A stretch of DNA of 64,000 nt, taken from assembly GCF_052425735.1 (NCBI RefSeq), contig NC_135770.1, positions 3,100,001-3,164,000 of the forward strand. Reading direction: 5' to 3'. Both the position numbers and the translations under genes were made by a program. The stretch's first letter is position 1, and each line of letters opens with the position of its first letter. The DNA is from Oculina patagonica. Its lineage: Eukaryota. This document shows positions 15,169 to 36,481 of the stretch, in pieces. The notes under the pieces are model-generated. The model worked only from the letters and a program-made list of their open reading frames with translations. It ran no database searches and was not told the origin of the DNA.

Positions 15169-16266
15169 AGTAGTAAGGACCGCTTATATGTTCAAGTAGC
15201 CAATCACAGCGCAGCATTTCTGCGCACGCGTAGAAAGGAAAATCACGTGACTTGGGTGTTGATGACGTCATAGGAGTGGGTCCCAGGGTGGTCCGAGTGT
15301 CGGTCCCAGGCCCCGGCCGGTCAAAAAGCGCTCGCCCCAGTCCCCCTCGAAAAAAAAAACCGAAACTAGGTGTAAATAGGCGTAAAAGGAAAAACCACGT
15401 GACTTAGGGGTGTGATGACGTCATAGGAGTCGGCCCCAGGGTGTTTGGAGTGTCGGTCCCAGGCCCCGGACGGTGGAAATGAACTCGGTCCCAGTCCCCG
15501 CGCGAAAAAAATAAACGACAAGACAAGAAAATAGGCGTAGAAGGGAAAACCACGTGACTTAGGGGTGTGATGACGTCATAGGAGTCGGTCCCAGGGTCCT
15601 TGGAGTGTCGGTCCTAGTCCCCAAACGGTTAGAATGAACTTGGTCCCAGTCCTCGCGCGGAAAAAAACGACAAGACAAGAAAATAGGTGTAAAAACAGGT
15701 TTTTTTTTTAATAACAGGTTTTTTCTGTTAAGGTACAAGACACTAAAAAACGGTAACAAGTGGTCCTAAAGCCCCGGTAGTGTAACGGGTATCACTCCTG
15801 CCGCTGAGGTAGGCAATCGAGGTTCGAGTCCTCGCTGGGGATATTTTTTTTTCCTTGTGTCAATGTTCACTAAGCCCTAGTGGCCGCGCACCCTGGGAGT
15901 GAACGTGTACAAAGTTAGCAAGACCACCATCCTATAGATATGGTTCACAAAGTGCCATACTGTCCTTGTGGTATCTGGAACTCCTTTGCACTAAACGCAT
16001 GCGCAGATGAGTCTACGCGATACACTCACGATTGATAATTAGTTACCTCTCTTGTGAAGACCACAAAGGTTGTCTCAGAAAGCGCCATGCCTTCCTTATG
16101 GTATGGTTCTTCCTGGCACTGAACGCATGCGCAGATGAGTCTACATTGCTTTTTCTAGGTCGGCGATTCTGAAAAAACACCGGCTTGTGAAGCTATTTTT
16201 TAAAAAATCACGTGAGAGAGGGGGGATGGGGGTATCCCTCTTTCTCGGGTGTACTGGGAACGAGTA
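15169..16266 (+). repeat. Left terminal inverted repeat of the Polinton
   Basis: Near-identical reverse complement of the right TIR to about 16152, then more diverged to about 16266; contains three ~153-bp subrepeats. Confidence 0.93.
15771..15842 (+). tRNA. tRNA-like Pol III gene (CTG/Gln-type anticodon, non-canonical) in the left TIR
   Basis: Cloverleaf GCCCCGG-TA-GTG/CAC-T-CCTGC(CGCTGAG)GTAGG-CAAT-CGAGG(TTCGAGT)CCTCG-CTGGGGA-T; A box TAGTGTAACGG; B box GGTTCGAGTCC; T9 terminator at 15844-15852. G replaces U33 and there is a G1.A72 mismatch. Confidence 0.8.
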
Positions 16267-16358
16267 AGAGAGTTTTGTTTGTTTGCTCAAGTCGGTGATC
16301 GAATGCACATACGACAACATGTAAACGTTTAACCACGTCTTTATTGTGTTCAACAACA

Positions 16359-16724
16359 TTAAAGTTTCAACTTTTTCTTGGCTTGCATGATTCGTTTGAC
16401 AATGCGTTCCGTCATGGTTTTACTTCCAGGTAATTTGTTGATGGCTTTAATCATTTTCTCGTCGGCTTTCCACTTGTCCCTTAGATTCTTGGCGTGACTG
16501 TAATCGATGTCGTGCTGTTTGGCGATCTTGTCTAATCGATTGATGCCCGGGTCCCCGCGTTTCAATCGCTTTGCCAATTTGGTTCCGGGACCCATGTACT
16601 GATAACCGGGCCAGTGAAATTCGATTCCAGTCTTCCCGAGCCACTTCTGAATGTCGATCCCACGTCCGCGTTGTCGTCGCCGTGTCGTCTTTTTTTCAGT
16701 CCTCTTCTTCTTGGTCTTCGTCAT
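16359..16724 (-). CDS. Parvovirus VP1u-type phospholipase A2 with basic N-terminal leader
   Basis: Ca-binding loop PGYQYMGPG and catalytic motif LDKIAKQHDIDY; leader ends in the protease-like site QRGRG. Confidence 0.9.
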   Translation of the reverse strand: MTKTKKKRTEKKTTRRRQRGRGIDIQKWLGKTGIEFHWPGYQYMGPGTKLAKRLKRGDPGINRLDKIAKQHDIDYSHAKNLRDKWKADEKMIKAINKLPGSKTMTERIVKRIMQAKKKLKL

Positions 16725-19555: not shown

Positions 19556-19767
19556 GTCTTTCTAGCTCTCTCTTCTAATGTCTGGATCAATTCGCTGAAG
19601 TAAGTCTCGTTATATTCTCTCACGAATTTCCACATCTGGCGCTTTTCGGCCAAATGTAGCACGGTTTGCATGGCGTCGTAGTCCATGTCCTCTTCTCTCA
19701 TACGCTCGAAATGACGACTGCACAGGTCCAAGAACGCGAGCCACACGTGATCGTTACGTACGAACAT
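19528..19767 (-). CDS. Polinton hypothetical protein (79 aa)
   Basis: Packed ORF overlapping the ATPase stop and the next ORF. Confidence 0.55.
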   Translation of the reverse strand: MFVRNDHVWLAFLDLCSRHFERMREEDMDYDAMQTVLHLAEKRQMWKFVREYNETYFSELIQTLEERARKTCQDIRQQE

Positions 19768-20419
19768 CTCGAACGAATCTGTAACATCTCATGCATCCCT
19801 CGTCTTTTAAGAGGTGGCTAAAAATCCGTCTGTCGTCGCCACTGGCAGGGTGTAGATCCAATACCATGTAACCAAAGGGTCTTTCCGTCGTCTTGGTGTA
19901 GACGTCCATCACATCTTGCCATCGGGAGGGAAACGCTTGTAACAGTAAATTCCTCATGCCCAATTGATCGCGAGGGTTCTTGAAAGCCACGATGTAATGC
20001 GCATTTCGAGAAATGCTCTTGGCGTATTTTCCCGGCGGAAACATGTCTTGACACAAGTACAGGACGGTGATGTTCCTGTGGTGGGAAAGTTTGGTGAACA
20101 GATCCAATACTCTCTTGTCGTTTCCTCCTTCTTCCATCAGATCGTCCAATACCATCACCCCTCCACGGGGAAACCATTTGGTCAAATCTACTTCTTCGGG
20201 AATCCCTTCGTGAAATTTCACGCCTCGCTTTTTCATGTTCGCGAAACCGTCTTGCCAAGCCCCAAAACAATAATGAATGGTCTCAGGGGGTGTACTAAAC
20301 AACTCTTTTGAGTGATTCAAAAGTACCGACTCGGTAAAACAAGTCTTTCCGCAGCTAGAGGGGCCCACAATCAAAATGCTAGAGGGCATCCGAAAGCTAA
20401 AGGCTTCACCGCGCTCCAT
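19754..20419 (-). CDS. A32/FtsK-HerA-family genome packaging ATPase
   Basis: Walker A GPSSCGKT, Walker B VMVLDDLM, and SHHRNITVLYLCQ motif; likely start MERGEAF at 20419. Confidence 0.95.
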   Translation of the reverse strand: MERGEAFSFRMPSSILIVGPSSCGKTCFTESVLLNHSKELFSTPPETIHYCFGAWQDGFANMKKRGVKFHEGIPEEVDLTKWFPRGGVMVLDDLMEEGGNDKRVLDLFTKLSHHRNITVLYLCQDMFPPGKYAKSISRNAHYIVAFKNPRDQLGMRNLLLQAFPSRWQDVMDVYTKTTERPFGYMVLDLHPASGDDRRIFSHLLKDEGCMRCYRFVRDVRT

Positions 20420-20551: not shown

Positions 20552-21121
20552 TCACAACAACAAGTGTCTTACACCGCAGAGAGACGGTTCACAATCCTGA
20601 TGGTATTCCATCTGACATATTTTGTGCCACGACCTTTCCTTCGAGATCAATTGCTTCAACATTTGCCCAACTTTATGATCATTGTACACGTAATCGTGTT
20701 TCTTGAATCTCGCTTCGAATTGACTCATGCTACGTCCTTCGGCCCTATCGATGAGATACATCAACGCGTAATCGCCGCAGCTCTGACTGTACAACGATTG
20801 TAGACTCTGTCCGTTGCGCTCCACGTACTTCCAATGAGCGTCCAACCAATCTTGCAACGGTTGCGCCGTCTGGTACACTTCTAGGGGTAAGGCGTAACTG
20901 TCCAATACTTCGCACACGTTTCCATTCGTCCACAGCGCGATCCAATGCCGACCGCGCATGTAGTGAGGATCGGTGTTGACGATGTACCCGCGGGCTTCCG
21001 TCTTGAGTGGTTTGCGAGGTAATCGATCGCAGGCCACTGTCCCGTAAAAGTAAGGCTTCAACGACGGGTGATGTCTGGCCAACTGATCCAATTGCACGTT
21101 ATTCAAAGTCACTTTCTCCAT
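20552..21121 (-). CDS. Adenain-like cysteine maturation protease
   Basis: IVNTD...GRHWIAL (His), LDSY (Asp), LQSLYSQSCG (Gln/Cys). Confidence 0.93.
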   Translation of the reverse strand: MEKVTLNNVQLDQLARHHPSLKPYFYGTVACDRLPRKPLKTEARGYIVNTDPHYMRGRHWIALWTNGNVCEVLDSYALPLEVYQTAQPLQDWLDAHWKYVERNGQSLQSLYSQSCGDYALMYLIDRAEGRSMSQFEARFKKHDYVYNDHKVGQMLKQLISKERSWHKICQMEYHQDCEPSLCGVRHLLL

Positions 21122-21123
21122 CA

Positions 21124-22527
21124 CTAACGCTGGTACACGTCGTACAACACGGCTTTGTTCTTGTCTATCTCCAAGAGATTCTCAAACTCTCCGTACACGA
21201 TGATGGTCAAGTTCACAGCTGGGTTGGCTCCAAAGTTCAGCTCTATTAGTAGATTTCCGGCTTGCTTGGGGTTCATCCTGTAACTGTCCACGCATCCATT
21301 GGCCACGTTGTCGAACACGAACAACGTGCAATTCTTTCCTTGTCCCCAATCGTCCCCTCTCACCATGTTTCCTTGCTGCTTGCACAGGCAACCGGTGGCT
21401 TGCAAGAAACGGTGGTACCCTCTGAGATCTTTGGTGCCATCGTTGTGGACCAACTCTAGCGTCTCGTAAGGATACTCTTCTCCTCCCACGAGTTGTTTTA
21501 TGCTGCTCATTCCAAACTTCTGAAAACAGAAGGGATCGTTGACCACGTTCCCGGTGAAGGCTGTGGACAGTACCATACCCACGATCACGCGGTTGGGAAT
21601 TCTTCCTTGGAACAAGTTGGTGCATTCGTACCGTCGTTGATCTCCCTGCATGTTGAAGGTCCGAATCTCGCTTCTCACGGTCGGGTAACTCACCACTTGA
21701 CTCTTGGTGGTCATCTCATCCATCAGTCTCCTGTACGTCGTGGGATTGAGACGCACTTGACACAGGTACATTCGAACTTTGACTTCCTCGGCCGTCAACT
21801 TTCCTGCCAGACCCACTCCGTTCAAGAACACGTCGGGAGAATTGAAGTACATCTGTATTCCTATCTGCACTCTGGGTACCAACAACTTGCTCAGATGAAA
21901 CACTTCGATGAGGGGTTTGAAACGCAACACGTGTCGCTTGCCGTCCGTGTAATTGGCTTGTTCTGCTTTAGAGTTCTTGAGAGCCTCCTTGTGATTGGCG
22001 GTCAGGGCTACATAGTCTGCGTGTCCAGCTCCAGCGTTGGCTGCTGTGTTCGTGTTATTGTCCGTCCACGTGGCTGGGAAATCGATATGATTGTACCATC
22101 CTTGAGGTTTCAAGATGGTTTCTCCATCACGTCTGTCGTAATTCAGCAACGTTTCCAAGAAGGCTCTGTAATGGTACGTGTCCGTCTGGGGACTGATGAG
22201 AGTACCGTTGAGACGCACGCTGATTTGCTTGAACAGAGAATGGGCTAGATTGTTGACGGGCCACAACAAGTCGGCAGCTGCCACGTTCCCATCGTTGTCT
22301 TTCTTCAGTTGCAATTCTACCTCGAAGAAGCTACGGCTGAGATCGATGTAATCTTCTTGGGGGTCGATCTGAAACTCCACCGGATTGATGCCTGTGGTGT
22401 AGGTCTGAACGGGGACCATCCGATACGACGAGACGCTGACGTCTGTCGGTGGTACGGCGAATAGATCCAATCGAGGATTGGCCTCGCGTCTCGACTGCGG
22501 GTAGGCGCTCGAGATGGTTTCGGTCAT
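21124..22527 (-). CDS. Major capsid protein (double jelly-roll)
   Basis: LDLFAVPPTD, PVEFQI, YIDLSRS, PVNNLAHSLFKQI, YHYRAFLETLLNY, IPNRVIVGMV, and VYGEFENLLEID motifs; likely start at 22527 (ATGA overlap). Confidence 0.93.
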   Translation of the reverse strand: MTETISSAYPQSRREANPRLDLFAVPPTDVSVSSYRMVPVQTYTTGINPVEFQIDPQEDYIDLSRSFFEVELQLKKDNDGNVAAADLLWPVNNLAHSLFKQISVRLNGTLISPQTDTYHYRAFLETLLNYDRRDGETILKPQGWYNHIDFPATWTDNNTNTAANAGAGHADYVALTANHKEALKNSKAEQANYTDGKRHVLRFKPLIEVFHLSKLLVPRVQIGIQMYFNSPDVFLNGVGLAGKLTAEEVKVRMYLCQVRLNPTTYRRLMDEMTTKSQVVSYPTVRSEIRTFNMQGDQRRYECTNLFQGRIPNRVIVGMVLSTAFTGNVVNDPFCFQKFGMSSIKQLVGGEEYPYETLELVHNDGTKDLRGYHRFLQATGCLCKQQGNMVRGDDWGQGKNCTLFVFDNVANGCVDSYRMNPKQAGNLLIELNFGANPAVNLTIIVYGEFENLLEIDKNKAVLYDVYQR

Positions 22528-23014: not shown

Positions 23015-24045
23015 GTTCGCTTGATATGTAGGGTCACGATCGTGTTGCCTTCGCCAAAATCCACCAGTTTACCTGTAGTCTCGCTCACTTGCGTTTCAAT
23101 AATGTCCACAATCTGGTTGCGGAGTGGAATATATTGTATGTGGAGAGGTTCAAAGTACTTGATACCTTTTCCTTCACGTTGAAAGTGAATTTCCCGCAAC
23201 AGATCCGTGACTTGATTTCCCACAACGGAACTACCACCCACATCTGAGTAAACGAAAAGCGTACGCGATGCATCTCCAATCACTTTTTGGAAGGCTCTGT
23301 TGAGTTTCACAAAGCGCCAGTTACAATAGCAACTCAAGAAAAGCTGTCCATTCTCAACAACCCAGAAATTTTTCTTGCCCTCTCCAAAATCATCCACGTC
23401 TATGGGATCGGGTATCGTAGCGTGGTGGCATTCCGGCTTCAGGTTCGGCCCGAGAAACACGTTTTCTTTCTCGTCCTTTTTTACCCATCCCATGTCAAAG
23501 GCCAAATCCTCGTTGAAAGACATGTAATATGGGACGCCTTCAGTTTTCACTTCCGAGACGTCCAAGTTCGAGTTGTCGAGGACTAGTTCTTCACCTTCCC
23601 ACTTGAACGTATATTCCCACTGCTTTCCATTATCGGGCGACTTGGTCAAGTCTCCCACGATACGCTTGTATTCTTTGACTTGATCGAACTTGAAGACCAG
23701 GGCTTTCATGAAACTGAGGCCATCCACGATGTTGTCGTCATATAGAATGTCCTGGAACGTCAGATCGGTGGTCACCGACTTGCTTTGCACGCGACCCTCC
23801 TTGTCTTTGCGCTTGAGCATCCACTGGGCACTCAAGAGAGGAAACTTGAACGACTTAAAGCGAGTTAAGTCGATGCTGGCATCTGGCACGGAAATGCTAC
23901 TCAATCCCACTTTCCAACCGGTTCCTTCCAATCGTAGCGGGTGAGGTAATCGCACCTTGAAAGAGTTTGCTCTATTCTCTGGAAACTCGGTTCCGCTGCT
24001 GTGACTGGGTAACGTGACCGTAAACTCCTGTCGGTCGTGGCTCAT
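23011..24045 (-). CDS. Minor capsid protein (penton, single jelly-roll)
   Basis: FTVTLPSHSS..FPENRANSFKVRLPHPLRLEG.WKVGL at the N-terminus; LFVYSDV..VVG...LLREI...YIPL...TIVTLHIKR at the C-terminus. Confidence 0.9.
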   Translation of the reverse strand: MSHDRQEFTVTLPSHSSGTEFPENRANSFKVRLPHPLRLEGTGWKVGLSSISVPDASIDLTRFKSFKFPLLSAQWMLKRKDKEGRVQSKSVTTDLTFQDILYDDNIVDGLSFMKALVFKFDQVKEYKRIVGDLTKSPDNGKQWEYTFKWEGEELVLDNSNLDVSEVKTEGVPYYMSFNEDLAFDMGWVKKDEKENVFLGPNLKPECHHATIPDPIDVDDFGEGKKNFWVVENGQLFLSCYCNWRFVKLNRAFQKVIGDASRTLFVYSDVGGSSVVGNQVTDLLREIHFQREGKGIKYFEPLHIQYIPLRNQIVDIIETQVSETTGKLVDFGEGNTIVTLHIKRT

Positions 24046-25121
24046 GATTTTTTTAGAGCCGTCTTCTCGATCCAGCTGTCGTACTTGTCTGGCCAGCCTT
24101 TCCAGTGCACCAAGACTTTATTTCCTTTTCGTTTGACGATCTTGTCCACCCTGAAGACATCGTCGTCGGACACTGCGACTTTTTGTAGATCTTCCTTGTA
24201 AAACGTACCGCGAAGGGGGGTGTCGTCCAACTCTTGGATCTTGTAAGTCGTGACGGGTGGTCCCCGACGCACCTCTCGTATCACAAACACTTCTTCGGTC
24301 CAGCCGGGTAAATACCCTTTCTCGAACGTGCGAAATTTCTTGTTCAATCTCACGCGTTCTCCCACTTTTAGCGGGGGTTTTCGTTCTCTTTTACCCGACG
24401 ACAATCTCTTCGCGTACAGACGTTCCCACACTTTTCCTTCGTTGCTCGCATTCACTGTCTCGGGGCTGGTGCCGATGCTACGATGGTGGGATCCGTTGTA
24501 ACCTTTCACCAAGGCCTGGAGTACAGGTAGGTAACTGAGCGTGTTCTTGGCGGTAAAGTATCGGTACATGCGTTCCTTGAGAGTGCGGTTGAAGCGTTCC
24601 ACGGTGCTGGCTTTGGTATCTCCGGCCGTGGAAAAGTGGTGGATGCCTTCCCGTTTCATCAACGCGGCAAACGTCTTGTTGTAAAATTCTTTCCCGTCGT
24701 CGGTCTGTAGGTTCTGAGGTTTGCGTCCATCGGCTCGTTTCAAAATCTTGGCAAAGGCGTCCGACACCGTTTTTCCCGTCTTGTCTTTTAGGGGTTCCAC
24801 CCAGGCATATTTAGACAAGACGTCGATCACGTTGAGTAGATATCTGTGACCCTTGTTGTATTTGGACAACGGTTGCGTTTCCACTAAATCGGCTACCCAC
24901 TGCTGGTCGACGTTAAACACCAGGACCGGTAACGTGGCGAAACGACGTCTGCGCGGTTTGTGAAGGGTATAACCCAAATCGCGCTCCAATACTTTTTTGG
25001 CTGTGTCGACGGATATCTTGTGCGATTTGGCGAATCTTGTTATCCCACCCAAGCTACCCGGTTGACTGGGATCGTGGTAGTCCGAAAGTATTTTTTCATC
25101 CTTTTTCAGCTTCTTTGGCAT
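24042..25121 (-). CDS. Retroviral-like (rve) integrase with C-terminal chromodomain
   Basis: DDE motifs WVADLV, QTDDGKEF and VERFNRTLK; GYLPGWTEEVF; chromodomain VDKIVKRKGNKVLVHWKGWPDKYDSW. Confidence 0.97.
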   Translation of the reverse strand: MPKKLKKDEKILSDYHDPSQPGSLGGITRFAKSHKISVDTAKKVLERDLGYTLHKPRRRRFATLPVLVFNVDQQWVADLVETQPLSKYNKGHRYLLNVIDVLSKYAWVEPLKDKTGKTVSDAFAKILKRADGRKPQNLQTDDGKEFYNKTFAALMKREGIHHFSTAGDTKASTVERFNRTLKERMYRYFTAKNTLSYLPVLQALVKGYNGSHHRSIGTSPETVNASNEGKVWERLYAKRLSSGKRERKPPLKVGERVRLNKKFRTFEKGYLPGWTEEVFVIREVRRGPPVTTYKIQELDDTPLRGTFYKEDLQKVAVSDDDVFRVDKIVKRKGNKVLVHWKGWPDKYDSWIEKTALKKS

Positions 25122-30998: not shown

Positions 30999-33900
30999 AT
31001 GGATGTTCCCTTTGAATTTCAATTGAGAGGTCACGTGGACCGCAGAGTACGCAGATTTGGTCTCCACATCAGAAACTTTACCGGACGACTGGTGCAGACA
31101 GGTGGTGGTGCCGCAGTGGAATCCGTTCCCCTAGGACCGCGACCCGTATTAGTACAGCAGATTGCCAGAGCCCTGCAGAGAGCCGTGCAGCAACATATTT
31201 TGGATGATGGAGCCGTTGGAGATGACGATCACTTGTTGATCAACATCAACAGTAACAGGATTCAAAATGCTTTTCATTCCAGACGGCTGAGAGTGGGAGA
31301 GTGGAGAGAAAACACCGTTGCTGCCCAACAGCTGTTAAAACAAATCAGTGACATGTTGAACAGTAATCAGACTTTTCAAGTCGACGACACGTTCAATCTA
31401 AACGTGTCTCACATACAAGATCCAGGCAAAGGTGGAGATAACCAGAAATACAAACCCGGTTTGGACCCCATCGAGACCATATTGGAGAAAAAGCGATGCG
31501 TGTTGAAAATCAAAAACACGGATCAATTATGCTGTGCCCGCGCCTTGGTGATGATGAAGGCCCGTGCCGATTTCGGGACCGACCATTGGTATTACAAGAA
31601 TGTCCGTGGAGCATACCCCATCCAAGAAAAGGCAGCCAGAGAGTTGCATCGTTTGTCCGACGTGCCAGAAGGTCCTTGCGGCTTGGACGAATTGGCCAAA
31701 TTTCAAGCGCACTTGAACGACTACCAGATTGTGGTGGTGTCTGTCCAACATGGGTACCAGATCATCTTCAAAGGAGCACAACGCCCCGACGACAAACGTT
31801 TGATCTTGATCAAGCACCATGACCATTACCACGGCTGCACTTCCCTAGGCGGATTTTTTGGCAAGAGTTATTATTGCACCCAATGCGAAAAAGGGTTTTC
31901 GCACGACAATCAGAAAGAACACCGCTGCCCGGGTGCCAGGTGCGCCGCCTGCCATCAGACAGATTGCCACGAATGGAAGAGAGCCCACGCTGTACCCAGG
32001 GTGAACTGTACAGACTGTCAACGGGACTTTTTTGGAACCCGCTGTCTTCAATTGCACAAGAGTCGCACCGACACGGGCAAAGACATGGCCCGAGACAAGA
32101 GGAACAGTGTGTGTGACAAGCACAAACGGTGTACGGGCTGTTTCAAGACCTACGGTGACTATGAACTGAGAAACAGTCACAAGTGCGGCCACGCTCTCTG
32201 CCCGTCCTGTAAGGAATACCAAGATCTTCGTTACCACCAGTGCTACATACAAAATCCTCTCAAGGTGGAACAAAAACAGAACCGCAAGAGAACCAGCGCC
32301 GGTCAACGCAAAGAAGACCAACCACCCGTGTTCGTCAGTTGGGACGCCGAAGCCAGGCAGGAAGAAGGCCAGCACGTCGCCAACTTGATTTGCGCCCTGA
32401 GAGGAGACACCGACGAGAGGAGAACCTTCGAGGGAGAGACTTGTGTCAAAGACTTCCTCGCTTGGTTGAGGGAGATCGCCGAACAACACCGCGTCATAGC
32501 CGTCGCCCACAATTTTCAGGGCTATGACTCTTACTTCATACTAAACGAGTTGTACGACCAAGCCATCTGCCCTGACCAAGTCGTCAATGGTGCCAAAATA
32601 ATCAGCATGAACATCCCAAACATCACCTTTAAAGACTCCATGTGTTTTCTGCAGATGAGCCTTGCTACCTTTCCCAAAGCCTTTGGCCTCACCGAGCAAA
32701 AGAAGGGGTTTTTCCCCCACTTTTTCAACACGAAGGAAAACCAAAACTATGTGGGCAGCATGCCTGCCAGAGACTATTACGATCCAGAGGGAATGTCCGC
32801 TGCCAGGAAAGCCGAATTCGACAAGTGGTACGAAGAACGCGTCGCGGAGAATTACGAGTTCTACTTTCGGAACGAACTTGTCGACTACTGTCGCTCGGAC
32901 GTGGAGCTGTTGCACGAAGGTTGCAAGGTCTTCCGGGCAGAGTTTCAAGCCATTGCCGGGTTCGATCCCATGGACCAGTGCCTCACCATTGCCTCGGCCT
33001 GTAATCGCTTCTACCGCACCAAGTGCATGCAAGAACAGACGTTGGCTTCTGAACCGGTACGAGGCTGGGAAGGCAAGGGCAAACCTCACTCCCTGGTGTC
33101 GCTGGAATGGTTGCTCTATCAAGACACCCAGACGCAGGGCACCATCCGCCACGCCAGAAACGGTGGAGAACGAGCCTTATGGATTGGAGGCCGTCTGATG
33201 AACGTCGACGGGTACGAGGATCACACGGTTTACGAGTTCCACGGCTGTTACTTTCACGGCTGTCCTGACTGTTTTCCCAATCGCGATCAGAAGCACCGGA
33301 AGATGGGCGACAGAAGCTTGAGGGACGTGTACGCGGAAACGCAACAAAAGAGCCAACGGATCCGGGATGCGGGTTACCGCGTGGTAGAAATGTGGGAATG
33401 CCAGTGGAAAGCGCTCAAGGACAATGATCCCGAGGTGAAATCGTTCGTGGACTCGTTGTCGATCAACTCCCGCTTGGAGCCGAGAGACGCCTTCTTTGGC
33501 GGTAGAACCAACGCCGTCCGCCTCTATGACCTTGCCCAACCAGAAGAAGAGATCCGGTACGTGGACTTTACCTCGTTGTATCCATTTGTCAACAAAAACT
33601 GTGACTACCCTCAAGGGCATCCCGAAGTGATCCTAGAACCGGGACACACGAACATTTCACAATTCTTTGGTCTGGCAAAGTGTACCGTGACGCCGCCCTA
33701 CGGGTTGTACAGCCCCGTGTTGCCCTATCGCCAAGGGGGTAAACTGACATTCCCCCTCTGCCGTACCTGCGTGGAAGTGGAGCAGCCGAAGCCATTGACC
33801 CAACGATCCTCCAAATGCGCTCACAGCCCTCAAGAACGCCAACTGACCGGAACGTGGTGCACGCCCGAGTTGGAAGAGGCCGTCAAGCAAGGGTACGTGG

Positions 33901-34865
33901 TGGAGCACATTCACGAGGTGTGGCACTTTGACCGCAAATCCAACACCATGTTTAAAGAGTATGTCAACACCTTCCTGAAGATGAAGCAGGAAGCGAGCGG
34001 CTGGCCCTCGTGGGTGGGCGACGATCCAGACAAACGCCAGGAATACCTGACACAGTTCTTTCTCAAAGAAGGCATCCAGTTGGATCCGGACAAGATTGAA
34101 AAGAATCCCGGACGCAGATCCCTGGCCAAGATCATGCTCAATAGTTTTTGGGGCAAGTATGGTCAGAAAGGCAACAAGAGCCAAGTTGAAGCCTTCACCT
34201 CTGCAGCTGAGTTTCACGATTTGTTGAGAGACGATTCTCGAGACATCCACGACATCCGGGTCGTCAATCCAGACATGTTGGAGGTGGTCCATAAGTGCAA
34301 GGAGGACTGTGCCAACATTCAACCGGACATAAACATCTTTGTTGCCTGCTTTACCACCACCTGGGCCCGTTTGAAGTTGTACCAGGAAGGTCTTTCCATC
34401 CTACAACCCGAACAGATCTTGTATTTTGACACGGATTCTCTCATCTACAAGCATCGAGAAGGCCAACCCTCCTTACCATTGGGAGATTACCTAGGAGACT
34501 TTACCAACGAACTAGACGATGATGACTTCATTGTGGAATTTGCCGCCGCCGGACCAAAAAACTATGCCTACAAGACGAAGCTGGGAAAAACCTGTTGTAA
34601 AGTAAGGGGTTTTTCCTTGAACGTGAGAGGATCCGCCCATCTCAACTTTGAGACATTGAAAGACAACGTCAAATCCGAAGTGAAAGAACCCTTGGCCGAA
34701 ACGAGGAGCATTGCCGTGTTCAACCCTCACAAGATCACCCGAGACAAAACGACCAAAACCCTGAACACTGTGACGGAGATCAAGCGCTATCAAGTGGTTT
34801 TCGACAAGAGAGTGGTAGATGCCAACACCTTTATGTCATACCCCTATGGTTACTTTAACGCCTAG
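30999..34865 (+). CDS. Protein-primed DNA polymerase B (with N-terminal TP/vOTU-like and Cys-rich regions and a nested VSR-like nuclease insert)
   Basis: Exo motifs WDAE, AHNFQGYD, YCRSDV; Pol motifs YVDFTSLYP, KIMLNSFWGK, YFDTDS, KNYAY; IKNTDQLCCARAL; insert VDGY..TVYEFHGCYFHGC...EMWECQW. Confidence 0.97.
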   Translation: MDVPFEFQLRGHVDRRVRRFGLHIRNFTGRLVQTGGGAAVESVPLGPRPVLVQQIARALQRAVQQHILDDGAVGDDDHLLININSNRIQNAFHSRRLRVGEWRENTVAAQQLLKQISDMLNSNQTFQVDDTFNLNVSHIQDPGKGGDNQKYKPGLDPIETILEKKRCVLKIKNTDQLCCARALVMMKARADFGTDHWYYKNVRGAYPIQEKAARELHRLSDVPEGPCGLDELAKFQAHLNDYQIVVVSVQHGYQIIFKGAQRPDDKRLILIKHHDHYHGCTSLGGFFGKSYYCTQCEKGFSHDNQKEHRCPGARCAACHQTDCHEWKRAHAVPRVNCTDCQRDFFGTRCLQLHKSRTDTGKDMARDKRNSVCDKHKRCTGCFKTYGDYELRNSHKCGHALCPSCKEYQDLRYHQCYIQNPLKVEQKQNRKRTSAGQRKEDQPPVFVSWDAEARQEEGQHVANLICALRGDTDERRTFEGETCVKDFLAWLREIAEQHRVIAVAHNFQGYDSYFILNELYDQAICPDQVVNGAKIISMNIPNITFKDSMCFLQMSLATFPKAFGLTEQKKGFFPHFFNTKENQNYVGSMPARDYYDPEGMSAARKAEFDKWYEERVAENYEFYFRNELVDYCRSDVELLHEGCKVFRAEFQAIAGFDPMDQCLTIASACNRFYRTKCMQEQTLASEPVRGWEGKGKPHSLVSLEWLLYQDTQTQGTIRHARNGGERALWIGGRLMNVDGYEDHTVYEFHGCYFHGCPDCFPNRDQKHRKMGDRSLRDVYAETQQKSQRIRDAGYRVVEMWECQWKALKDNDPEVKSFVDSLSINSRLEPRDAFFGGRTNAVRLYDLAQPEEEIRYVDFTSLYPFVNKNCDYPQGHPEVILEPGHTNISQFFGLAKCTVTPPYGLYSPVLPYRQGGKLTFPLCRTCVEVEQPKPLTQRSSKCAHSPQERQLTGTWCTPELEEAVKQGYVVEHIHEVWHFDRKSNTMFKEYVNTFLKMKQEASGWPSWVGDDPDKRQEYLTQFFLKEGIQLDPDKIEKNPGRRSLAKIMLNSFWGKYGQKGNKSQVEAFTSAAEFHDLLRDDSRDIHDIRVVNPDMLEVVHKCKEDCANIQPDINIFVACFTTTWARLKLYQEGLSILQPEQILYFDTDSLIYKHREGQPSLPLGDYLGDFTNELDDDDFIVEFAAAGPKNYAYKTKLGKTCCKVRGFSLNVRGSAHLNFETLKDNVKSEVKEPLAETRSIAVFNPHKITRDKTTKTLNTVTEIKRYQVVFDKRVVDANTFMSYPYGYFNA

Positions 34866-35049
34866 TACTACCCACTAGCTCGTATGGGGCATGCTGTTGT
34901 GTCCAACAGCATGCCCCAGATGGGAAACCTACCGCAACACGTTGATATAGTTTCAATCGTACCCACGTTGATCGTTCTCCATAACTGAATATTTAATAAC
35001 TTACTTGTCGACATCTTTTGAGATATAAACACTCTCACCGCTCGATTCG

Positions 35050-36144
35050 TACTCGTTCCCAGTAAAACCGAGAAAGGGGGATACCCCCTCATCCCCCCTC
35101 TCTGACGTGTTTTTTTTTTTAATACTTCACAAGCGTGCGTTTTTTCAGAATCGCCGTAAAAGCAATGTAGACTCATCTGCGCATGCGTTTAGTGCCAGGA
35201 AGAACCATACCATAAGGAAGGCATGGCGCTTTCTGAGACAACCTTTGTGGTCTTCACAAGAGAGGTAACTAATTATCAATCGTGAGTGTATCGCGTAGAC
35301 TCATCTGCGCATGCGTTTAGTGCAAAGTATTGAGTTCCAGATACCACAAGGACAGTATGGCACTTTGTGAACCATATCTATAGGATGGTGGTCTTGCTAA
35401 CTTTGTACACGTTCACTCCCAGGGTGCGCGGCCACTAGGGCTTAGTGAACATTGACACAAGGAAAAAAAAATATCCCCAGCGAGGACTCGAACCTCGATT
35501 GCCTACCTCAGCGGCAGGAGTGATACCCGTTACACTACCGGGGCTTTAGGACCACTTGTTACCGTTTTTTAGTGTCTTGTACCTTAACAGAAAAAACCTG
35601 TTATTAAAAAAAACCTGTTTTTACACCTATTTTCTTGTCTTGTCGTTTTTTTTCCGCGCGAGGACTGGGACCAAGTTCATTCTAACCGTTCGGGGACTGG
35701 GACCGACACTCCAAGGACCCTGGGACCGACTCCTATGACGTCATCACACCCCTAAGTCACGTGGTTTTCCCTTCTACGCCTATTTTCTTGTCTTGTCGTT
35801 TATTTTTTTCGCGCGGGGACTGGGACCGAGTTCATTTCCACCGTCCGGGGCCTGGGACCGACACTCCAAACACCCTGGGGCCGACTCCTATGACGTCATC
35901 ACACCCCTAAGTCACGTGGTTTTTCCTTTTACGCCTTTTTACACCTATTTTCGGATTTTTTTTCCGAGGGGGACTGGGGCGAGCGCTTTTTGACCGGCCG
36001 GGGCCTGGGACCGACACTCGGACCACCCTGGGACCCACTCCTATGACGTCATCAACACCCAAGTCACGTGATTTTCCTTTCTACGCGTGCGCAGAAATGC
36101 TGCGCTGTGATTGGCTACTTGAACATATAAGCGGTCCTTACTAC
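35050..36144 (-). repeat. Right terminal inverted repeat of the Polinton
   Basis: Reverse complement of the left TIR; ends GGTCCTTACTAC and is followed by a rearranged extra terminal segment (36145-36475). Confidence 0.93.
35473..35544 (-). tRNA. Identical tRNA-like gene in the right TIR
   Basis: Exact reverse complement of 15771-15842, including the oligo-T terminator. Confidence 0.8.
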
Positions 36145-36481
36145 ATTACTCTATTATTCGCGCGGGGACTGGGGCGAGCGCTTTTGGCCGCTTATATGTT
36201 CAAGTAGCCAATCACAGCGCAGCATTTCTGCGCACGCGTAGAAAGGAAAATCACGTGACTTGGGTGTTGATGACGTCATAGGAGTGGGTCCCAGGGTGGT
36301 CCGAGTGTCGGTCCCAGGCCCCGGCCGGTCAAAAAGCGCTCGCCCCAGTCCCCCTCGGAAAAAAAACCGAAACTAGGTGTAAATAGGCGTAAAAGGAAAA
36401 ACCACGTGACTTAGGGGTGTGATGAAATGCTGCGCTGTGATTGGCTACTTGAACATATAAGCGGTCCTTACTACTTGTATC

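Follow-up and report, generated by a model that had tools for sequence, protein, structure and literature searches.

Genes for tRNAs are known from viruses of the Polinton lineage. PLV and virophage genomes gave 558 tRNA matches, with 37 occurrences of 'tRNA-Gln' in Table S12 of the same study (available text of PMC12220804), and tRNAs are marked in MELD viruses in the legend to a Figure 6 (available text of PMC8502044). The PLV tRNAs were read as codon compensation or as a measure against tRNA depletion; a TIR location goes unmentioned in the available text, and the 28 of 886 supplementary rows available for one term all come from protists (PMC12220804). The gene described here resembles those of PLVs, virophages and giant viruses in being a tRNA gene of a Polinton-lineage virus whose core matches viral tRNA-Gln. 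It differs from the PLV tRNAs in lying in both TIRs of an animal Polinton, in carrying a purine at position 33 and in its unstable acceptor end.

Like the adenovirus VA RNA gene, it is a type-2 Pol III gene from a related virus lineage with a plausible counter-defence role. VA RNAs are ~160 nt long, do not form a cloverleaf, contain long dsRNA stems and are located internally. The first-pass annotation of this DNA had offered a VA-RNA analogue as one reading, and anatomy leaves at most a functional analogy: the gene encodes a 72-nt cloverleaf that a T run closes within 1–2 nt, it has neither a long dsRNA stem nor a miRNA hairpin downstream, and no Rfam VA match appears at E <= 10. Uncharged tRNA-like RNAs of gammaherpesviruses affect infection (available text of PMC4337559). 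The vtRNAs (TMERs) of murine gammaherpesvirus 68 (MHV68) share with our gene that they are viral Pol III tRNA-like RNAs encoded near a genome end; they are not aminoacylated, and their tRNA part alone has a phenotype (available text of PMC4337559). TMERs, in the text available, have miRNA hairpins behind the tRNA, whereas here a T run follows within 0–2 nt. By anatomy the TIR gene is neither a VA RNA nor a TMER.

Among cellular RNAs, mascRNA is likewise a cloverleaf mimic; it is inactive in aminoacylation and binds GlnRS (available text of PMC9976931). It differs, as far as the available text goes, in being cut from a Pol II lncRNA and in having no conserved anticodon loop, and the mascRNA-menRNA match scores only 15.6 of 42.5 bits here, far under threshold. 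Natural tRNAs with a purine at position 33 are a further comparison, the G33 tRNA-Ser among them being presumably that of the Candida CUG clade. They comprise a G33 mistranslating tRNA-Ser and an A33 tRNA-ProX (available text of PMC11415595); for these cellular tRNAs mistranslation has been shown or proposed, whereas here the acceptor end drifts. Finally, an altered anticodon loop is shared with those phage tRNAs for which such changes are proposed as a means of escaping host tRNases; the phage tRNAs are presumed to decode (available text of PMC10264068).

The titles and abstract openings returned by our searches of open-access literature describe no non-coding RNA gene in animal Polinton TIRs and no tRNA-like gene in Polinton TIRs, and the word 'tRNA' is absent from the available main text of a coral polintovirus survey (PMC11131425). 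We conclude that the TIR tRNA-like gene is real, conserved and element-specific and, in this form, apparently undescribed.

The window, a 64-kb stretch of Oculina patagonica contig NC_135770.1, contains a virus-like Polinton of ~21 kb with an identical 72-nt cloverleaf, complete with A box, B box and T9 run, in each TIR. Its features are:

15169..16269, plus strand: left TIR, starting AGTAGT, with ~155-bp tandem units and then the tRNA-like gene
15771..15842, plus strand: cloverleaf of type A, probably tRNA-Gln-derived, with G33 at 15803, CTG at 15804-15806, G1.A72 and U73
15778..15788, plus strand: A box, putative Pol III internal promoter, a consensus match
15821..15831, plus strand: B box, a consensus match of putative function
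15844..15852, plus strand: T9 run, Pol III terminator predicted from sequence
16359..16724, minus strand: phospholipase A2-like (PLA2) domain gene (PF08398, E 6e-12), a terminal gene whose 3′ end faces the left tRNA head-on
19754..20419, minus strand: putative packaging ATPase, a weak AAA match under cut-off
20552..21121, minus strand: putative adenain-type protease, a weak match under cut-off
21124..22527, minus strand: putative major capsid protein, a 467-aa ORF so named from size and position
24042..25121, minus strand: rve integrase with chromodomain, a profile match
30999..34865, plus strand: protein-primed type B DNA polymerase (pPolB), a terminal gene whose 3′ end is head-on to the right tRNA
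35047..36475, minus strand: right TIR (35047-36144) with a rearranged outer end, the true terminus being at 36475
35473..35544, minus strand: second, identical tRNA-like gene, with T9 at 35471-35463

Membership of the Polinton class is indicated by pPolB (PF03175, E 1.5e-47) and the rve integrase (PF00665, E 3.7e-13), by long TIRs with AGTAGT termini at 15169 and 36475, and by flanking 6-mers identical at 5/6 positions (TGTCTC/TGTATC), likely a target-site duplication. The closest named homologue of pPolB, at 97%, bears the label Oculina patagonica. Neither Pfam nor PHROGs gives a family match for the 467-aa putative capsid ORF. The TIRs are 1.1 kb long and 96.7% identical to each other, and the tRNA copies lie ~600 bp inside them, both pointing inward. 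Genes of the left block run on the minus strand and those of the right block on the plus strand, so that each block ends facing a tRNA gene.

Two other features of the TIRs deserve mention. The right end (35956-36475) is rearranged: ~240 bp of outer TIR recur as an inverted duplicate, which gives a perfect hairpin of 179 bp (35956-36134 / 36188-36366) inward of the true terminus. A template switch in terminal replication may be the cause. The ~155-bp tandem units at 15228-15694 and 15985-16145 carry CACGTG and TGACGTCA motifs, and the same regions hold a CCAAT box and two CGCATGCGCA motifs, all of which we take to resemble sites for Pol II promoter factors.

The sequence itself, ARAGORN and Rfam bear out the earlier description: a cloverleaf of 72 nt that has both internal boxes (A and B) and a T9 run, is identical in the two TIRs and is directed inward. 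ARAGORN calls both copies tRNA-Gln(CTG), with no other tRNA in the 64-kb window, and a local scan of the left copy with RF00005 scores 36 bits, above the gathering threshold of 29 (E 1.4e-5). A gathering scan of the whole window with fast filters missed both copies, and a 10-locus Rfam scan missed types A and B (see below). The G at position 33, the C32/G38 opposition and the G1.A72 mismatch are as first described, and the MFE fold closes C32-G38. The statement that the stems are intact holds for 19 of 21 pairs; the D stem has three pairs and a U13.U22 mismatch, which is also present in giant-virus-type tRNA-Gln and is not decay. Similarly, the claim that the sequence differs strongly from tRNA-Gln(CTG) is correct for overall identity to the host gene (41 of 72), but the core formed by D arm and variable loop is Gln-type.

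Genome counts are lower bounds. A DNA search of the genome returned at least 33 matches, comprising 25 identical type-A tRNAs, one decayed copy and seven copies of a second type, B. Thirty-two of the 33 lie in Polinton ends; the other is in a decayed TIR remnant, which bears a decayed tRNA (L026/L161). A pattern for tRNA-like genes with a purine at position 33 gave at least 37 matches: 25 of type A, seven of B, three of a third type, C, and two of an unrelated type, E, which is not near Polinton genes. No free copies of A, B or C outside Polinton ends or remnants were found in the genome searches. With the 467-aa putative capsid ORF as query, 28 elements were recovered with a full-length match of at least 97%, and two more with a split or partial ORF. 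Among these 30 sister elements, 11 have type A at both ends, three have B at both, one has A and B, two have A at one end and one has C at both; 12 have no tRNA, a group that includes one element whose ends were not located. Type C occurs once more next to a pPolB fragment, at a distance of 450 bp from an AGTAGT end. Because copies are confined to Polinton ends and are absent from 12 of 30 sisters, the gene is element-specific and accessory.

This distribution also disposes of the objection, raised in the first-pass annotation, that the gene might be a host SINE head or a tRNA captured in this copy alone. A SINE would be expected as dispersed, element-independent copies with a body and a LINE-like or poly(A) tail; instead, the copies stay with the elements, the T run stands directly behind base 73 and the downstream flanks differ between types. 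A common host tRNA-SINE was considered as the source: it is abundant, but unrelated to the TIR tRNA. These genes nevertheless invite misannotation: ARAGORN labels them tRNA-Gln or tRNA-Pyl, filtered Rfam scans miss them, and 25 type-A copies would be annotated beside the host's own tRNA-Gln genes.

The ~30 elements have putative capsid ORFs 97–99% identical, yet bear many different mosaic, sometimes nested TIR types; in type C there are inner AGTAGT ends, and ends of differing type occur on C8 and C10. The association of the same capsid ORF with differing TIR types indicates that terminal modules are exchanged between elements. One element (L039:2245-5355, G000:C3) has a TIR 88% identical to type B over 320 bp, the match ending exactly at tRNA base 1; the sequence continues into a T run where the tRNA would begin and looks like a precise empty site or a breakpoint. 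Type B (for example L156:1210-1281, G000:C14; seven copies on C1, C2, C10 and C14) combines an amber (CUA) anticodon with A33, pairs along its whole acceptor stem and is labelled tRNA-Pyl by ARAGORN. In the one B/B element examined, the composite TIR is 2.1 kb long and takes in another PLA2-like ORF, and pPolB is truncated. Two ORFs lie in the type-C TIR (2.6 kb; L119:2849-3852), one of 100 aa that converges on the tRNA and one of 163 aa rich in Cys/His; neither has a significant match in Pfam or PHROGs.

Parts of the stretch are present in 20 sequencing runs under five organism codes, and the Logan contigs of eight runs, five of them presumed to be RNA, were compared. In the type-A contigs of these eight the tRNA is unchanged among the listed differences, except in one X15 contig (at 15819), and the flanks differ; one X6 contig (organism B) continues into the type-B downstream flank. 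Single contigs of X15, X17 and X20 (organisms D, C and E; three studies) represent a fourth type, F; they match the tRNA alone, with 10, 10 and 7 differences, and have unrelated flanks. The four differences listed for type F show A33, A at the position of G53 and no anticodon change.

Searches further afield were largely negative. DNA patterns for relatives gave 0, 1 and 0 matches in IMG/VR, the single match being a phage tRNA-Asp; a capsid-protein scan of IMG/VR found no relative; and the three matches in one metagenome scan lie in tRNA arrays or belong to a lone tRNA, none of them near Polinton genes. Two metagenome contigs (L162:3546-3596 and L164:2647-2697) hold large tRNA arrays with a tRNA-like gene of the purine-33 pattern that ARAGORN does not call and that is unrelated to Polintons. 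Three further tRNA-like types were examined and left out of the family. Type D (L044:9133-9204, L045) is a divergent tRNA-Asp(GTC)-like gene with U33 and a weak acceptor stem; it lies internally, between ATPase and protease, in a Polinton related to ours (91% capsid ORF). Types E and G are two small degenerate tRNA-like families with similar D arms, located in repeats (L146:9816-9887, L151, L250, L252, L120; L244, L247) and not near Polinton genes.

Within this clade, further TIR types contain units derived from tRNA that have a B box and a T run, some with an A box, but broken stems (L034:4516-4591, minus strand, and L054; L057:6581-6648, plus strand; L043/L063; L049). They point outward wherever the terminus was located, and the L034 unit occurs at two places only, the two ends of one element. 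Rfam applied to 20 stretches from the ends of other elements gave chance-level matches only.

Of particular relevance to function is the pattern of change between TIR types. Pairwise identities among A, B and C are 61, 55 and 51 of 72 nt, whereas the 72-nt flanks on either side align no better than shuffled sequence; the TIRs of A and B align over the outer 178 bp, then over the tRNA alone, then over inner repeats. Compensatory change among relatives, which the first-pass annotation had named as a point to check, is seen between TIR types as pair-preserving substitutions: the anticodon and T stems are fully paired in 5/5 distinct copies, and two pairs have changed on both sides (2-71 is C-G or G-C; 30-40 is G-U, A-U or G-C). 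Across five copies 88.6% of cells are paired, a value reached by 1/500 shuffles, with slid controls at 40–57%. Counts of pair types are unexceptional (148/500 and 116/500 shuffles as high) and the covariation score is matched by 19/500. When the same substitutions are placed at random in the acceptor, anticodon and T stems, as many pairs are kept with P of 0.007, 0.055, 0.021 and 0.030. The tertiary pair 15-48 is A-U in types A and B and G-C in C; a run of at least six T lies within 0–2 nt of base 73 in all three; type C has a G5.G68 mismatch. Among the 25 type-A copies, 0/72 columns vary in the tRNA against 52/300 in the flanks (nominal p 7e-6, the copies being related and not independent). 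Stems mostly kept between types and covariation at 15-48 together argue that the folded RNA is under selection; the sequence evidence for this, from a full alignment covering three independent types, is good but not overwhelming.

The anticodon loop and the acceptor end tell a different story from the stems. Loop positions 32-38 read CG-CUG-AG in A, CA-CUA-AA in B and UG-CUG-AA in C. Where a canonical tRNA-Gln(CUG) has U33, a purine stands in all four types (G in A and C, A in B and F); position 33 is U in 73/73 host tRNAs checked and a pyrimidine in 25/25 distinct viral tRNAs sharing the core. In place of the host's G1-C72 with U73 we find G1.A72 in A and C and C1-G72 in B, with U, C or G as discriminator; an end so variable at 1:72 and 73 retains no fixed acceptor identity. 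C34, U35, A37 and G10-C25 are retained in A, B and C, and G36 in three of four types. The turn on which efficient decoding depends is stabilised by U33, and in a natural tRNA decoding is curtailed by G33 (available text of PMC11415595). The uniform purine 33 could go back to a single ancestral replacement, with neutral G/A transitions since; as the outcome would look the same, selection for purine 33 is not proven.

A need for the gene in translation was sought and not seen. No sign of codon compensation was found, the element ORFs containing 74 CAG and 124 CAA codons and the host at least 30 canonical tRNA-Gln genes by pattern search. No target for amber read-through emerged among the genes examined: the putative capsid gene stops with TAG-TGA, the C-termini of 10 homologues show nothing corresponding to a 40-aa frame past the TAG of pPolB, and in a type-B element reading through TAG restores no recognised gene.

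As to origin, overall identity and core disagree. Among the host tRNAs compared, the best overall identities are to Asp (46 of 72), Gly(CCC) (43) and Gln (41), with His, Val and others outside the comparison. At the 23 core positions, types A and B match viral tRNA-Gln at 22–23, host Gln at 18–19 and host Asp at 11–12, the two viral tRNA-Gln having been found with a pattern drawn from that same core; type C is ambiguous (host Gln 18, viral Gln 16, Asp 14). A tRNA-Asp origin was therefore rejected despite its lead in overall identity, the core scoring 11–14 against 18–19 for host Gln and, in A and B, 22–23 for viral Gln. A search of IMG/VR with the core pattern (D arm plus variable loop, no anticodon constraint) found 42 loci, 35 of them tRNA-Gln (22/25 distinct sequences), many from giant-virus MAGs. 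Phage tRNA-Gln was not accepted as donor, its 73–77% matches being the best of many. Since the core is nearer to giant-virus-type tRNA-Gln than to the host's, recent capture from the host is unlikely, and we infer from the sequences that the gene descends from a non-animal-type tRNA-Gln carried in the virus lineage and was not acquired recently from the coral.

A conserved shape, probably impaired decoding and a loose acceptor identity make up the pattern expected of a mimic. The first-pass annotation had left three options, a VA-RNA analogue, a tRNA decoy and paired insulators, and the decoy is the best supported of them; the giant-virus-type core, the amber type and the accessory nature of the gene go beyond that annotation. 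The explanation that we prefer, and to which we give slightly less than an even chance, is an accessory Pol III tRNA mimic that would act as a counter-defence decoy. Host Pol III would transcribe the tRNA-Gln-derived TIR gene into a short RNA of predicted L shape, and RNase P and RNase Z would process this RNA. The RNA would decode weakly or not at all, poor decoding being likely from the purine in place of U33, and would present a tRNA-shaped decoy to host antiviral or stress factors directed at tRNAs. A Schlafen-type nuclease and GlnRS are candidate partners; in the host, Schlafen AlbA_2 matches over the Pfam cut-off number at least five (G000:C2:14340755, C2:14387544, C1:30122918, C1:30165815 and C13:37160138), which shows only that a candidate exists. 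That both ends carry the gene calls for no special function, as each TIR is copied onto the other. Some observations sit less well with a decoy: the retained C34, U35, A37 and G10-C25 fit GlnRS recognition and possibly decoding; 12 of 30 sisters lack the gene; type C has its G5.G68 mismatch and type F its A at the position of G53; and the broken-stem units with boxes and T runs fit a role at the DNA level. The roles of decoy, tRNA, boundary and cleavage signal need not be mutually exclusive.

The retained glutamine features would be explained if the gene encoded an attenuated working tRNA, charged by GlnRS and inserting glutamine at CAG (A, C and F) or weakly at amber (B), its loop resisting a host anticodon nuclease. 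We regard this as unlikely, though worth keeping in view. Glutamine determinants in E. coli include 1-72, 3-70 and the discriminator in addition to U35, 10-25 and G36, and amber suppressors become charged with glutamine (available text of PMC9976931). The natural G33 and A33 of mistranslating tRNAs, the phage anticodon-loop hypothesis and the Schlafen-domain genes of the host would all be in keeping with such a tRNA. However, neither 1:72 nor base 73 is conserved, the codon counts and host tRNA-Gln genes leave no evident demand, no amber target was found, and Rfam scores of 36–42 bits for the cloverleaf types compare with 68 for host tRNA-Gln.

Equally unlikely, in our estimate, is a function of the DNA itself, in which TFIIIC and TFIIIB bound at both ends would form chromatin boundaries and head-on roadblocks, with the RNA as a by-product. 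They would keep the promoter-rich TIR open and block Pol II read-through into and out of the provirus. tDNAs do have barrier and roadblock activity, the A and B boxes are intact here, both gene blocks are transcribed outward to end against tRNA genes, and other TIR types (L034/L054, L057) have kept boxes and T runs with broken stems. The symmetric position of the two tRNA genes would fit as well, although symmetry follows from location in a TIR. A boundary needs the boxes only, yet the acceptor and anticodon stems and 15-48 have been kept by pair-keeping changes; moreover, the broken-stem units point outward, not inward.

Improbable, but consistent with an acceptor/T-arm fold kept while decoding features were lost, is a cleavage signal in the manner of mascRNA or tRNA punctuation. 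RNase P and RNase Z would cut inward Pol II transcripts, started in host flanks or TIR promoters, and so prevent antisense or foldback dsRNA over the terminal genes. At each end the cloverleaf does read inward and is antisense to the terminal gene there, and there is the weak mascRNA-menRNA match; against this, intact A and B boxes with a T run within 0–2 nt in three types indicate an independent Pol III unit, and cutting would not require conservation of the anticodon stem.

A neutral passenger, that is, a captured host tRNA or SINE head made uniform by recent amplification and TIR homogenisation, could account for the 12 sisters without the gene, the youth and relatedness of the type-A copies and the L039 match that stops exactly at the tRNA start, but is very improbable and largely refuted by the stem pairing, the conserved island between unalignable flanks, the invariant columns and 15-48, there being in addition no free A, B or C copies outside Polinton ends or remnants, an unrelated host tRNA-SINE and a core nearer to giant-virus tRNA-Gln than to the host's. 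Two other proposals were dropped: pairing as antidote with an element-encoded tRNase toxin found no support (12 ORFs have no PHROGs match), and a tRNA primer role was rejected, pPolB being protein-primed.

Extending the decoy, we can sketch a fuller history, which as a whole is doubtful and clearly less probable than the decoy itself. An old virus-borne lineage of non-animal-type tRNA-Gln in coral Polinton TIRs would have turned into an RNA dedicated to counter-defence, in which purine 33 is deliberate and of which one variant is amber; it would be swapped as a terminal module and be one of several Pol III units so recruited. If true, this would give animal Polintons a parallel to the anti-tRNase tRNAs of phages, and a model for how Pol III RNAs of the adenovirus type arise from tRNA.

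A conserved tRNA mimic that is not of host type offers a handle on how integrating viruses meet cnidarian antiviral defence. It also bears on whether corals have tRNA-targeting immunity and on the evolution of viral Pol III RNAs from tRNAs. Within a single genome, elements that bear the gene stand beside sisters that lack it, which makes a natural experiment.
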